Origin: Candidatus Harpocratesius repetitus
GTDB lineage: Archaea; Asgardarchaeota; Lokiarchaeia; Sigyniarchaeales; Promethearchaeaceae
DNA length: 32,000 bases
Assembly: GCA_021498095.1 (NCBI GenBank)
Contig: JAIZWK010000001.1
Location: forward strand, 3,330,001 to 3,362,000
Direction of reading: 5' to 3'
In this document: positions 27,190-32,000 of the stretch, piece after piece
Layout: every line of letters starts with the position of its first letter
How positions within the stretch are numbered: position 1 is the first letter of the stretch
Notes under the pieces: model-generated
Database searches by the model: none
Told to the model about the DNA's origin: nothing
The model's input: the letters and a program-made list of their open reading frames with translations, nothing else
Program-made: the position numbers and the translations under genes

Positions 27190-27465
27190 ATGGTAAAATT
27201 TGAAAAACGCAGACCAACTGAAGAAGAATTAAAGAAACTTGGGGTAAATAATTGGGGAATTTGGACTAAAGAAGTTTCTGAATTTGATTGGGAATATGAT
27301 AGCCCTGAAACCTTTTATGTTCTTGAAGGTGAAGCAGAAATTGTTTCTGGGGATGAAAAAATCGAATTTCAACCTGGAGACTTGGTAACATGCCATGAAG
27401 GAGTTAAGTGTGTATGGCATGTGAAAAAACCGATAAAAAAACACTACTATTTTGGTAAAATATAA
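27190..27465 (+). CDS. Cupin_3 (DUF861/EutQ-like) protein, 91 aa
   Basis: WGIW...FDWEYD..ETFYVLEGEAEI...GDLV...G..CVWHV pattern; AGGTGA upstream. Confidence 0.88.
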   Translation: MVKFEKRRPTEEELKKLGVNNWGIWTKEVSEFDWEYDSPETFYVLEGEAEIVSGDEKIEFQPGDLVTCHEGVKCVWHVKKPIKKHYYFGKI

Positions 27466-27491
27466 GTTCTTTTGATAATTTCTTATTTTTT

Positions 27492-30026
27492 TCATTTTTT
27501 TTTTATTTGATATTTTGTATGTATTTTTATCTTACCACCACAATTCAAACAACGAACAAATTGAGGTGCAATATTTGGCTTTACGAATTGCCAGATATAT
27601 TCACCACATAATCCACACATAAATTCAATTAATAATTCTTGAGTGCGTCCTATTTGAATATCAATTATTGATCCTTTTAAAGGAGGATTCTCTATCAATG
27701 CTAATCCTTCTTTTCCCTCGTTTCTTTTTTTTTTTTGTCCATTCATTATTGAAATATCATAATGGGGATCTCCTTCTTTAAAGGGCCCATTTATATCCAA
27801 TCCCCAGTTCCCTTCAGGAGTTTCTACTATAATATAATATTTTTTTATATTCACAGTTTTTGTTCTTAAAAATTTCTGAGCTTTGATTACAGATGGCCCT
27901 GAATAAATTTCATAAAATAAATCTTTTACTTTTTCTGTTTTTTTAAAATAAATTTTAAATTCAGGATAATCAGTAAATTCGGTTGGAATTTCGTAAGATA
28001 ATGTTTCATCTACATCTTTTTTGATTGTATCGGCAGGTTGATGTATTTTTATGGTTTTTTTTGTAGAAAATTGTTGAAGTGTTTGTACATTGGATTTAGA
28101 AGGAATTAAGTTCGAAAATTTTCGATATTCATTTAATATTTCAGATATCTCTACTGCCAGATTATGTGCTATTGCTGATTTTAAACGATTTTCAAAAAAT
28201 TTGGCAATCTCAGTAGCTTTAGAATTTCCTTCTTTTATATATATTTTAATAAGGACGAAGCAAATTTGTAAATACTCATATAAATTTCCTGAGGTTTCTG
28301 TAAGAAATTTTGCATATTCTAAAATTAATTTAGCTTCTTGAATTTTACCTTGTTGTAGAAGAAAAAAACTATATTCAAGTTCAATTAAACAAAGATCTTC
28401 TAATTTTGGAGAAGAATTTGCATAAAAATGACATTGTTTGAAATATTGCTCCGCTTGATCAAAATCTTTTCTTAACACAGAAAGTTTAGCAAAACCTAAA
28501 TAAGAAAGTTCAATTTTTTTTTTTGAATTGCAACCTCTTATTAACATTTCTGATTTTTTAAAATCATCGACTGCCAAAGAAAGATCATTTGTAATAATAT
28601 TTATATTACCCATTAGTTGAAACCATTGAGCCATTATTAAGGAGTATTCGATCAGAAAATGAGAAAGTTCACACCTTTGAATATCATTTAAAACACTATA
28701 CAAAAGCAATTGTGCTTGATTAACTTTATCATTTCTAATTAAGTTTCTCGCATAATGAATAAGAATATTTAAATATTTAGAATATTGTTCAAGTGAATTA
28801 AATCTCTCTCTAAAAATTTCTAAAGATTTTGCATAATATTTTATTGATTTATCATAATATAGAAATTTTTCAAAAATTACAGCAGGAAGGTAATATTTAA
28901 ACCATTTAGGAGTGGATATTTTCTTTAGAGAATACTTATTACTATTTTTACTAAAGATATTTAAAGAGATGTTTCCAAAATGAAATATTTCTTTCCAGAG
29001 ATACTTGATTAATTCAATAGTATTAACTTTGACAATAAATATATTTTCCGCCTTTCTTTTTTCAGTTTCAACTAAGTGATTTAAAAAATTTTGTAATTTT
29101 ATATCAATATCAAGAGAAACAGATTTTTTAGAATTAGTTTTATTTTTATTTTCTAAATCATTGCGATTTGATTTGATATCTTGATTCAATTTATAAATTT
29201 GAGCATTATTTACATCAAAATTAACATCATGCTGAATCCAGATTATTCTTTTATTGCTTTTAATTTGATTAATAGAAGGCAAAATATCAAAATCATCCAT
29301 TCCTGAATATCCAAGAATAATTATATCTGAAAGAATCAAGTCATTCTTAAATATTTTAAATTTCCAAGGTTCTAAACCAAAAAAGGTACGATACATATAC
29401 TTTTCATTTAAGTTAGGTTGCTCGATACCCATTTTATGACTGAAAATCTGACTTAATGTAGATTGAAATGAATTTCGAGTGTCTGTTTGTGAAACTATAT
29501 TTTTTAAAGAACCATGTAATTTGAAAACTCTTGCTTTTGAAGAGGTTAAAAGATTTAAATCACTCCAATCTTCATATGTGATAACAGGTTTCAATTCCTT
29601 AGAAATACTTTTATCAGAAATAAAGGCAATTTCAATTAAAGAATCAAAATTCGTTGTATAAATAAAATTTTCATTTGCTGCGCAATGTGCTAAAAATAAA
29701 TGAATTAAATTGAAATTTTGGCATTTTTCATAAATTTCAAGAATTTCAAGATTTGGATCAATATTTTCCGTAATTATTTCCATTAATTGTTCAAACCTAA
29801 GAAATTCTCCAAAAAGATATTGATTATTTGATTTATAATTCATTAAAGAAATTATTGAATCTATTTCAGGTTGTATGCAAATGGAATTCAATAATGAACG
29901 TGTTAACTCATAACCTGAAGGCAAATTTGTTGGAGACTCAACTGAAATTCCAGAACCAGCTAAAAAAGAATATTTTTGATAAAAAAAAAGATCAGATATT
30001 TTTAAGGTACTTTTTATCCAATACAT
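27492..30026 (-). CDS. SIR2-like (SIR2_2) domain + TPR-like repeats + C-terminal unknown domain and zinc ribbon, 844 aa
   Basis: FLAGSGIS, YTTNFD, FKLHGS and ILGYSG sirtuin motifs; AxxYYxxA-type helical repeats in the middle; CGLC...CLNC at the end. Confidence 0.85.
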   Translation of the reverse strand: MYWIKSTLKISDLFFYQKYSFLAGSGISVESPTNLPSGYELTRSLLNSICIQPEIDSIISLMNYKSNNQYLFGEFLRFEQLMEIITENIDPNLEILEIYEKCQNFNLIHLFLAHCAANENFIYTTNFDSLIEIAFISDKSISKELKPVITYEDWSDLNLLTSSKARVFKLHGSLKNIVSQTDTRNSFQSTLSQIFSHKMGIEQPNLNEKYMYRTFFGLEPWKFKIFKNDLILSDIIILGYSGMDDFDILPSINQIKSNKRIIWIQHDVNFDVNNAQIYKLNQDIKSNRNDLENKNKTNSKKSVSLDIDIKLQNFLNHLVETEKRKAENIFIVKVNTIELIKYLWKEIFHFGNISLNIFSKNSNKYSLKKISTPKWFKYYLPAVIFEKFLYYDKSIKYYAKSLEIFRERFNSLEQYSKYLNILIHYARNLIRNDKVNQAQLLLYSVLNDIQRCELSHFLIEYSLIMAQWFQLMGNINIITNDLSLAVDDFKKSEMLIRGCNSKKKIELSYLGFAKLSVLRKDFDQAEQYFKQCHFYANSSPKLEDLCLIELEYSFFLLQQGKIQEAKLILEYAKFLTETSGNLYEYLQICFVLIKIYIKEGNSKATEIAKFFENRLKSAIAHNLAVEISEILNEYRKFSNLIPSKSNVQTLQQFSTKKTIKIHQPADTIKKDVDETLSYEIPTEFTDYPEFKIYFKKTEKVKDLFYEIYSGPSVIKAQKFLRTKTVNIKKYYIIVETPEGNWGLDINGPFKEGDPHYDISIMNGQKKKRNEGKEGLALIENPPLKGSIIDIQIGRTQELLIEFMCGLCGEYIWQFVKPNIAPQFVRCLNCGGKIKIHTKYQIKKK

Positions 30027-30032
30027 GAAAAA

Positions 30033-32000
30033 TCACAATTTTTCTTCAAAATTAAAATAAAATCCAATAGATTGGAAATCACCTAGTAAAGGGTTATTCC
30101 CTTCGACAATAGCTTCAAATGGAACCAGTACATTTGGTTTAAGTTTTATATTATCTGGTGCATTAGTAATTACTTTTTCTGAAAATCCACAAATAGGATG
30201 CTCAATATCGACTAAAGATTTAATCCATTCTTCAAATTTAGCATAATTTATCATCCATTTTTTATCAAATGTGTTAGAATTTGTTGGAATATTTTTACAT
30301 ATAGCTAAACCTTTTTGCATTTCTTTATTGTTTATATATTTAATTAAAGTTGGAGCATTAAGATCTGCACTTTTTGCCAAAAACGTAGATAAATTTGTTG
30401 AATTAGCCAAAGTGATCTTTTTAAATAAAGATTTATTTGTATCATCAAAGTACTTTTCTTTATTTGGTGATATAAAGATTACATTAAACTTTTCTTTAGA
30501 TAATATTGATTTTTGCTCTTCTTCTAATTGTTCCTGATTTTCATTCTTTTTATTAATATCAACAAAAGAAGAAATCATATCTTTAATTATTTTTACAAAA
30601 GAGAATTCTTCATTATTTTTATTTACTACTTCTCTTGCAAATTCTAATAAATTTTCTCCATTAATTATCTTACCCCCTTGTACTTCTGCTTTAGATACAA
30701 ATTCTTTGGTTTCTTTAATTATTGAAGATTCTTCAAACTCATTCAGATCTCCTAAATATTTTATATAATCATAAAATTTACCTAAAAGAAATTTCTTAGT
30801 TTGAATTAGTTCAACCAATACATCTTTTTCTATATTTTCTTTGATTTTTTCTTCTTGAAGTCTATTTAAAATCATTTCTATGATCCAAATTATTGGTTTG
30901 CTAATCATAAATGATTTTTTTAACTTAGATGAATGATCACTTAAAAATAGAATTTCAATAATATTTGTTATATAAAATTGCAAAGTATATATTAAATCGA
31001 CTTTCTCAATTTGATTTCCTTGTTTAATAAATCTTGGGATAATTGTTGGATTTGGATTATTATTCCAATTAAATGATGTTTTCGATTTTTTTGGACGAAT
31101 TAAACCCAAATCTTGTTCAATTTCTACCTTTTGGTTAAAATTTATAATTTCCTTATTGAAAATGTATTCAAAATTTTTAAAAACAAAATCTAATTCCTCA
31201 TGATTTGCCAAAGATTTCTTATTATGATCTTTTGAAAAGATGCTAATAATAAAATCGATAATTTTTCTAAATCCATTTTTTTTTATCGGAATTAAGGCTT
31301 TTTGGAAAAGTGATGTCGTATCATATAAAATGTTTATCATAGCTTGATAACTACAATTGCACACTTGCTTATTATCATCATAAGATAAGCGAACAAGGTT
31401 GTAAAAATAATAAAACAAAGCAAATCGTAAATAAATCAATGAATAAGTTTGTAATTTTTTAGGTAAAAGATGAAGCTGATTTTTATAAAATCCAAATGGA
31501 ATTTCGCCGATATTTGACAAAGTTTCAATTATTAATCGACGAATAAGAACATCTTTTGATTGGAAATACTTATAATAATCATCAATAGTCATCTCTCCAA
31601 ACCATGAAAGTGCCTGAATGATAACCAGTAGAGGCAGTTTTTCATTTTCATGGATAAATTCTTTTACATTTGTTAAATATCCTTGATTAGATACAATTGA
31701 CAATCCAAATAGCTTTATAATTTTATGATAGTTTTGTTTATTATTTTGAAACTGACTTAATTCTTCTTCGATATTTTTATTATAAAATAATTTAGAAATT
31801 AAGATAAACAATTTTATTTCTATATCATCAAAGAATTCCATAGAAGAAATAATATCCAAATTTATTTGCTTTAAAATAATATATTTTAAGAAAATATGCA
31901 TATTAAGATCTGAATCTGCACTATTAACAAAAGGAAATATATATTCATAATTTTTTACAGGATCTGTTCCTAAAATATCAATTGCTTGAATTTTAATTGA
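30033..32000 (-). CDS. HEAT-repeat-containing protein, 5'-truncated by the window edge (>655 aa)
   Basis: Manual translation shows the frame stays open from 31901 to 32000 (SIKIQAIDILGTDPVKNYEYIFPFVNSADSDLN-MHIF). HEAT-like units QSKDVLIRRLIIETLSNIG and SYDDNKQVCNCSYQAM. The stop is 6 bp before the SIR2 gene start. Confidence 0.7.
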   Translation of the reverse strand, partial: SIKIQAIDILGTDPVKNYEYIFPFVNSADSDLNMHIFLKYIILKQINLDIISSMEFFDDIEIKLFILISKLFYNKNIEEELSQFQNNKQNYHKIIKLFGLSIVSNQGYLTNVKEFIHENEKLPLLVIIQALSWFGEMTIDDYYKYFQSKDVLIRRLIIETLSNIGEIPFGFYKNQLHLLPKKLQTYSLIYLRFALFYYFYNLVRLSYDDNKQVCNCSYQAMINILYDTTSLFQKALIPIKKNGFRKIIDFIISIFSKDHNKKSLANHEELDFVFKNFEYIFNKEIINFNQKVEIEQDLGLIRPKKSKTSFNWNNNPNPTIIPRFIKQGNQIEKVDLIYTLQFYITNIIEILFLSDHSSKLKKSFMISKPIIWIIEMILNRLQEEKIKENIEKDVLVELIQTKKFLLGKFYDYIKYLGDLNEFEESSIIKETKEFVSKAEVQGGKIINGENLLEFAREVVNKNNEEFSFVKIIKDMISSFVDINKKNENQEQLEEEQKSILSKEKFNVIFISPNKEKYFDDTNKSLFKKITLANSTNLSTFLAKSADLNAPTLIKYINNKEMQKGLAICKNIPTNSNTFDKKWMINYAKFEEWIKSLVDIEHPICGFSEKVITNAPDNIKLKPNVLVPFEAIVEGNNPLLGDFQSIGFYFNFEEKL

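Follow-up and report, generated by a model that had tools for sequence, protein, structure and literature searches.

A SIRim-type SIR2 gene with a helical-repeat region, an unnamed C-terminal module and an orphan HEAT-repeat neighbour in Candidatus Harpocratesius repetitus

Introduction

The immune domains that occur in bacteria, archaea and eukaryotes alike include the SIR2 (SIRim) NADases, and no archaea are more closely related to eukaryotes than the Asgard archaea. Does a SIR2 gene lying six nucleotides (nt) from a HEAT-repeat gene in an Asgard archaeon form part of a new defence system that depletes nicotinamide adenine dinucleotide (NAD)? The two genes occupy the right-hand end of a 32,000-nt stretch of Candidatus Harpocratesius repetitus (assembly GCA_021498095.1, contig JAIZWK010000001.1; G000:C1:3330001-3362000), which we call the window, in a genome made up of a single contig of 4.36 Mb with 31% guanine plus cytosine (GC). 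A first-pass annotation had taken them to be a SIR2-TPR-zinc-ribbon gene coupled to a HEAT-repeat gene and had proposed the pair as a strong candidate for an undescribed system. Here we refer to the SIR2 protein as P0001 and to the HEAT-repeat protein as P0004. We conclude that the locus holds a defence-type SIR2 domain and a putative helical-repeat sensor, that it is unusual in also having an unnamed but widespread module and an orphan HEAT-repeat neighbour, and that it has not yet earned the status of a system.

Results

P0001 carries a SIR2 domain of the SIRim/NADase type

By Pfam score, catalytic residues, GxGxS loop and Rossmann-type fold, the N-terminal 350 residues of P0001 belong to the SIRim/NADase-type SIR2 superfamily. 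Pfam SIR2_2 (PF13289) matched residues 121-258 with 40.6 bits against a gathering cut-off of 24.5. The sirtuin motifs, which had been called intact, are indeed so, with GSGIS at residues 24-28, TTNFD at 124-128 and KLHGS at 169-173, and P0001 keeps all 21 family-invariant SIR2 residues of alignments A1 and A4, across which G24, G26, S28, N126, D128 and H171 are invariant. The catalytic pocket of DSR2 and ThsA is built of Asn-Tyr-Asp and a His (N133-Y134-D135/H171 in DSR2; PMC11263360). N126, D128 and H171 of P0001 correspond to the DSR2 pocket, and position 127 is a Phe, as in SPARSA.

Similarity to characterised proteins at the sequence level required a profile: phmmer with the SIR2 domain alone found no match among PDB sequences, and the SIR2-domain profile found SPARSA Sir2 (1.3e-9), DSR2 (9e-6) and also ThsA, FAM118B and KomC, its matches to known SIR2s running through the TTNFD and K-x-HG motifs. 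In an AlphaFold model built with 23 homologues, residues 1-350 form a confident Rossmann-type domain (predicted local distance difference test, pLDDT, mostly 85-96). With the whole model as query, the best Foldseek matches were DSR2, EfAvs5 (SIR2-STAND), KomC (template-modelling (TM) score by target 0.52-0.53) and SPARSA Sir2.

Behind the SIR2 domain lies a degenerate TPR-like array. Pfam TPR matches in P0001 all fall below the cut-off, whereas the TPRs of its homologues score E values of 1e-34 to 1e-142. In the same model residues 370-610 fold into paired-helix repeats with a pLDDT of 75-90 (the chain is unmodelled there from residue 618 on), and Foldseek matched this part to the Rap and LGN TPR proteins. 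The first-pass domain calls (SIR2_2, TPR-like, zinc ribbon and, in the neighbour, HEAT) were all supported.

P0001 belongs to a family of Asgard SIR2-TPR proteins

Over the SIR2 domain and linker, the N-terminal half of P0001 is 31-41% identical to many Asgard proteins (30+ proteins, E values of 1e-57 to 1e-26), which are annotated only as 'tetratricopeptide repeat protein' in metagenome-assembled genomes of Promethearchaeota, Hodarchaeota, Hermodarchaeota and Odinarchaeota. Among 200 genomes of the phylum, matches are concentrated in the two nearest families (3 of 3 and 35 of 40 genomes, or 38 of 43), often in 2-4 copies, with open frames of ~600 to ~1370 amino acids (aa). All eight representatives (720-1370 aa) consist of SIR2_2 and TPR arrays with no NTPase. 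P0001 likewise has the homologous SIR2 domain and then the repeat array, in the same order, with the same invariant residues and no NTPase, its repeat part being merely TPR-like by Pfam and a helical repeat in the model. It differs from the other members in its degenerate TPRs, its upstream HEAT-repeat gene and its position in a species-specific insertion, the others being often syntenic. In a maximum-likelihood tree P0001 nests within the family and lacks a close sister; its branch is long (1.45 changes per column) and its exact placement unresolved. Two same-genus genomes hold distant paralogues only.

When the neighbours of 41 SIR2-TPR homologues (40 neighbourhoods) were compared with P0004 and with the C-terminal module of P0001, no resemblance was found (phmmer, E<0.01), and no other conserved partner gene emerges in the neighbourhoods examined. 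The SIR2-TPR family is essentially a single-gene family of stand-alone genes. A form of ~1355 aa has the same gene neighbourhood in six genomes of genus g6 (L042, L044, L046, L054, L055 and L058) and is therefore vertically inherited, unlike the accessory P0001 copy. Tandem or near-tandem paralogues also occur within the order: G057 has two adjacent copies (L048:7452-11981, G057:C70) and G083 has a pair separated by 3 kb (L040:7865-15342, G083:C20), which points to local duplication in the family.

PADLOC gave domain-level matches only (Aga_SIR2, PDC-S65, ThsA and TPR), so the SIR2-TPR family is not a catalogued system, in agreement with the first-pass statement that the locus matches none. 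A full-text literature search found no title or abstract on the Asgard SIR2-TPR family, and a paper on SIRim proteins contains no description of it.

P0001 resembles DSR2 in plan and other SIR2 systems in the SIR2 core

The top structural match of the whole P0001 model is DSR2 of Bacillus subtilis (PDB 8wy8, 8wyb, 8wkt, 8zc9). Like P0001, DSR2 has an N-terminal SIRim-type SIR2 domain with an Asn-x-Asp and His pocket, and a long alpha-helical repeat sensor region in the same chain with no NTPase. However, the two proteins are only 12-15% identical, no DSR model was among the PADLOC matches, and P0001 lacks the SIR2-HTH-helix bundle-HEAT-CTD order: where DSR2 has a helix-turn-helix (HTH), a helix bundle, HEAT repeats and a C-terminal domain (CTD), P0001 has the TPR-like array and the alpha/beta and zinc-ribbon module. 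HEAT repeats lie within the DSR2 chain, where trigger sensing is a matter of the HEAT-repeat cavity and surface (PMC11263360), whereas here they make up a separate 1046-aa protein, and the host is an archaeon.

Pfam found no SLOG or TIR domain, HerA, pAgo/APAZ or STAND NTPase in P0001 or its neighbours. Sir2-APAZ of SPARSA (PDB 8jkz, 8jl0, 8in8), the best SIR2 profile match, has TTNFD and K-x-HG in common with P0001, and the PADLOC Aga_SIR2-PNTD models matched 22 of 24 SIR2-TPR family members at up to 9e-12, but the P0001 locus has no APAZ, PIWI or adjacent Argonaute and the likeness is confined to the SIR2 core. Avs5/SIR2-STAND (EfAvs5, PDB 9jap) and ThsA also have SIR2 domains similar to that of P0001 by structure and profile, and they combine a SIR2 NADase effector with a sensor, as P0001 may do. 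The STAND/P-loop NTPase of Avs5, however, is absent from P0001 and from eight homologues (720-1370 aa), and a search of P0001, P0004 and the neighbours turned up neither the SLOG/Macro domain nor the TIR partner of Thoeris; what the ThsA models match in the family is the SIR2 core only. The PADLOC candidate PDC-S65, a model of 592 positions, matched P0001 over 55 residues (E 4e-5, profile positions 142-193) within the SIR2 core, short of a full-length match; it matched 20 of 24 family members at 3.5e-11 or weaker.

The C-terminal module of P0001 is an unnamed, widespread domain

Beyond the family core P0001 has a unique C-terminal extension of ~230 residues, absent from 23 aligned homologues and from 41 neighbourhood copies, which carries an alpha/beta core followed by a zinc ribbon. 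An exhaustive HMMER scan with residues 600-844 (E<=1e-3, representatives at 50% clustering) yielded a module family of 172 cluster representatives (proteins P0043-P0192 among those listed). Common to the family is an alpha/beta core of ~60 residues (TYExY...FL...YYIxVETPEGNWGxDxxG), followed in about one third of the representatives by a linker and the zinc ribbon (DNFV..CGxCG..W...RYQN.T.V.CPxC). P0001 carries the full motif, Y-x-x-Y...F-L...Y-Y-I-x-V-E-T-P-E-G-N-W-G-x-D-x-x-G and then C-x-x-C...W...C-x-x-C; the invariant columns of alignment A2 (L, G, W, D, G, four Cys and W) are all present between residues 720 and 830, and the A2 profile scored 2.4e-38 on the P0001 gene. The C-terminal CxxC...CxxC pattern belongs to this conserved module, of which Pfam recognised the zinc ribbon alone.

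A PDB sequence search with the module gave no match. Its model has a pLDDT of 83; Foldseek against the PDB returned nothing at E<=0.001, the structure atlas reached TM scores of no more than 0.38 by query, and the best hits of a wide VIA-align search (Z up to 4.3, to C-Ala and DHHA1-like domains) were within noise. A Protein Atlas look-up gave weak matches only (0.79).

The module sits at the C-terminus, or sometimes the N-terminus, of highly diverse proteins. Among 86 module proteins of at least 230 aa, the commonest fused Pfam domain was HEAT_2, in nine and always N-terminal to the module; DUF805 membrane proteins (five) came next, and then ankyrin, TPR, LRV, a kinase and a TPR-CHAT protease. 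A SIR2 domain was found in none of the 150 module proteins listed. In the order (101 genomes) the module is rare: besides the P0001 gene there is one stand-alone core of 77 aa and one degraded match with internal stops, and the remaining five profile matches cover the zinc-ribbon half only. The module is an unnamed, widespread and mobile domain that merits a family definition of its own.

Two bacterial contexts of stand-alone module genes (L062:6001-7620 and L067:1-6450) are possible conflict or signalling settings. In one, the module gene precedes a WD40 beta-propeller gene by 13 nt; in the other, it ends a same-strand run that also encodes a 1589-aa HATPase_c-like protein, a PIF1-type helicase and a response regulator.

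In another lineage, on short contigs (L079:179-3494 and L060:162-2740), the module occurs near a SIR2 gene in a split arrangement: a 179-aa unannotated gene and then a stand-alone module gene of 177-195 aa are both divergent from a SIR2_2 gene of 397-418 aa, with the module ~800 bp from the SIR2_2 gene and an isochorismatase-family gene adjoining the latter on its other side. The family is of nicotinamidase type, and its place beside SIR2 hints at coupling to NAD salvage. The SIR2 protein is 32% identical to the P0001 SIR2 domain and falls in a different tree clade, which suggests that SIR2 and the module became associated a second time, independently, though in a single lineage. We rejected the idea that the locus is a full 'split copy' of P0001, as the 179-aa protein has no significant similarity to the P0001 TPR region.

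The HEAT-repeat neighbour is specific to its lineage

The junction reads TGA-TTTTTC-ATG, so that the same-strand gap of 6 bp reported earlier is confirmed, with the HEAT-repeat gene as the upstream and the SIR2 gene as the downstream member of the pair. The upstream frame had been seen to run open past the window edge, and the retrieved flank completes it to 1046 aa. The suggestion that the locus might be larger than what was visible holds in that respect and not beyond it: the genes beyond P0004 are divergent, so the same-strand unit consists of two genes and starts at the HEAT-repeat gene. At the local composition, the chance expectation for open frames of 844 and 1046 aa is ~1e-35 and ~1e-46, respectively.

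Pfam HEAT_2 matched P0004 at E 6e-18 in four stretches within residues ~19-450. For residues 480-1046 (567 residues), a search of 5.8 billion proteins of comparable length returned nothing homologous at E<=1e-3; language-model features judged the C-terminal half HEAT-like (0.91, weak), and the Protein Atlas gave nothing usable for residues 890-1046. No full-length relative was found in 100 genomes of the order, which gave only generic HEAT matches to residues 1-550 (E>=5e-11), and wherever a genome had both, every listed HEAT match was on a different contig from the SIR2 homologue. No relatives were found in viral contigs. Complex prediction with residues 480-1046 and the module scored 0.00, which we give no weight either way. 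P0004 is lineage-specific, has no orthologue that we could find, and is not a defining partner of the SIR2-TPR family. As no orthologue was found, co-conservation of the pair cannot be shown, and the proposal of a strong candidate system, to the extent that it rested on the pair, is not supported: the two genes did not recur together in independent genomes.

The locus lies in an 11.5-kb low-GC insertion

The impression of extreme AT content was borne out: the locus has 24.7% GC (25.3% for the SIR2 gene, 24.3% for the HEAT-repeat gene) against a genome mean of 31.0 +/- 2.2%, a value found only among the lowest 0.5% of genome segments of the same size. In window coordinates the low-GC tract spans ~27000 to 36000. 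Comparison with the same-genus genome G094 delimits an insertion of 11.5 kb (Table 1). The two genomes are collinear in a 1165-aa gene, dtdA, the cupin-like 91-aa gene and a 282-aa gene, with 90 bp between the last two in G094 and 11.5 kb in Ca. H. repetitus. The cargo comprises the SIR2 and HEAT-repeat genes, three small divergent genes, two PEMT/ICMT-like membrane genes and an insertion sequence (IS) element. No relatives of the 168-aa and 111-aa small proteins were found in 100 genomes of the order. At the ends of the island there are low-complexity repeats only and no tRNA gene, and hence no att site or target duplication. In a further same-genus genome, G089, both flanks are contig ends; the insertion site may be a variable hotspot. 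The P0001 copy is absent from both same-genus genomes searched and is accessory cargo, unlike many of its relatives.

The cupin-like gene that marks the left edge is convergent with the SIR2 gene, the stop codons being 27 nt apart. An 88-aa minus-strand open reading frame (ORF) at 27229-27495 that overlaps the SIR2 stop codon is spurious and is ruled out by the 91-aa plus-strand gene, which matches G094 at 77% aa identity over its full length. A scan for promoters and terminators found about as many sites as in shuffled controls; its consensus is bacterial and uninformative for an archaeon.

Table 1. Features of the SIR2-HEAT locus (window coordinates unless a genome or locus prefix is given; aa, amino acids)
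Feature	Position	Strand	Evidence
P0001 gene (SIR2_2, TPR-like, linker, alpha/beta and zinc ribbon; 844 aa)	27492..30026	-	ORF, translation, Pfam SIR2_2, Asgard SIR2-TPR family membership
SIR2 domain (SIRim/NADase-type), residues 1-350	28977..30026	-	alignments A1/A4, profile matches, structure model
Degenerate TPR-like helical repeat array, residues ~370-610	28197..28919	-	sub-threshold Pfam TPR, model, fold matches
C-terminal module, residues ~693-840: alpha/beta core (YYIIVETPEGNWGLDINGPF) and four-Cys zinc ribbon (CGLCG...W...CLNCG)	27507..27950	-	alignment A2, HMMER, model
6-nt spacer TTTTTC, HEAT stop TGA to SIR2 start ATG	30027..30032	-	sequence; junction ...TTG TGA tttttc ATG...
HEAT-repeat gene, 3' two thirds inside the window	30033..32000, open at window edge	-	ORF
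Full HEAT-repeat gene P0004, 1046 aa	G000:3360033-3363173, to window-extended 33173 (1.17 kb beyond the window)	-	flank retrieved
Cupin-like conserved gene, 91 aa; left edge of the insertion, outside the system	27190..27465	+	77% aa identity and synteny with G094
Three small genes divergent from the HEAT-repeat gene, same low-GC tract (168 aa, N-terminal transmembrane helix; 81 aa, two transmembrane helices; 111 aa, CxxC...CxxC)	L002:7319-8406 = G000:3363318-3364405	+	
11.5-kb insertion	27466 to window-extended 38945 (G000:3357466-3368945)		comparison with G094

Discussion

We see an even chance that P0001 is a 'defence-associated sirtuin' that, like DSR2, combines sensor and effector in one chain, with the HEAT-repeat gene as a lineage-specific accessory. 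A trigger protein would bind the helical-repeat part of P0001 (the TPR-like array and the module), and this binding, probably through an altered oligomeric state, would release or assemble the SIR2 NADase, so that NAD+ would be hydrolysed and its depletion would lead to growth arrest or abortive infection. P0001 would then derive from the large Asgard SIR2-TPR family by fast evolution, horizontal placement and the gain of an extra C-terminal module, and P0004 would be probably co-expressed cargo of the same low-GC insertion, perhaps with a helper role in sensing or regulation. Retention of the motifs and of all family-invariant residues despite the long branch argues for such a single-chain enzyme, as do the structural and profile matches to DSR2 and other defence SIR2s, the NTPase-free SIR2-TPR plan of a family that is almost always without a conserved neighbour, and the place of the gene in a low-GC insertion. 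Several observations weigh against it: the TPR array is degenerate; no recognisable defence island was found in the flanks; several members of the family are stable and syntenic, which is as compatible with a housekeeping or regulatory function as with immunity; and the 6-nt spacing and common composition suggest that the HEAT-repeat neighbour is not irrelevant.

A second reading is a two-component system in which P0004 would act in trans as a sensor or inhibitor and would dock on the SIR2-TPR protein by way of the C-terminal module, an arrangement that we consider rather unlikely. The short same-strand spacer, with the HEAT-repeat gene beginning the unit, and the extreme GC content and insertion common to both genes fit it. 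So do the habits of the module, whose commonest fusion is to HEAT_2, whose other fusions also include repeat scaffolds (Ank, LRV, TPR-CHAT), which has one WD40 neighbour and which lies near a SIR2_2 gene of the same family in the unrelated split locus; DSR2, moreover, joins the same logic in one chain, SIR2 and a HEAT sensing cavity (PMC11263360). Yet P0004 has no orthologue that we found, neither a HEAT-repeat gene nor a module gene neighbours any of the 41 family members, and no listed module protein has a SIR2 domain; in P0001 the module already stands behind a TPR array, so that the 'repeat plus module' pattern is complete within the chain and needs no neighbour. The wider claim, that the HEAT-repeat and SIR2-TPR-module proteins form a new two-component NAD-depleting Asgard immune system and that the module is a general adaptor coupling alpha-solenoid sensors (HEAT, TPR, Ank, LRV) to effectors across bacteria and archaea, strikes us as improbable; if true, the module family would be a new, widespread signalling or conflict domain.

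It is similarly doubtful that P0001 stands outside immunity altogether, as an NAD-dependent regulatory or signalling enzyme (acting through NAD+/ADP-ribose or protein modification) within an Asgard expansion of repeat scaffolds, with P0004 as scaffold or substrate adaptor. Many family members are conserved, syntenic chromosomal genes, the genes in the neighbourhood encode a Ras-like GTPase, DtdA and a large TPR/coiled-coil protein and are not defence genes, and FAM118B-type SIRim proteins have signalling roles too (bioRxiv 10.1101/2024.09.18.613514). This copy, however, is accessory, fast-evolving, absent from both same-genus genomes and carried by a low-GC insertion whose genes mostly lack detectable relatives, which is unlike a core regulator. 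That the locus is decaying or functionless cargo, a degenerated sensor beside a de novo or fast-drifting repeat ORF, seems to us very improbable indeed: degenerate TPRs, a long branch, an orphan partner and an IS element in the same insertion would fit decay, but frames of this length at 25% GC are vanishingly improbable by chance, and every family-invariant SIR2 residue and invariant module residue is kept.

The HEAT pairing is a single observation and is not to be counted as a system yet. The module, once its function is defined, would annotate many proteins (at least 172 clusters, preferentially fused to HEAT or other repeat scaffolds). Of the SIR2-TPR genes considered here, the P0001 copy is the one case that resembles mobile immune cargo, by its species-specific insertion, foreign composition and fast evolution, and these traits recommend it as a starting point for asking whether the family has an immune role at all.

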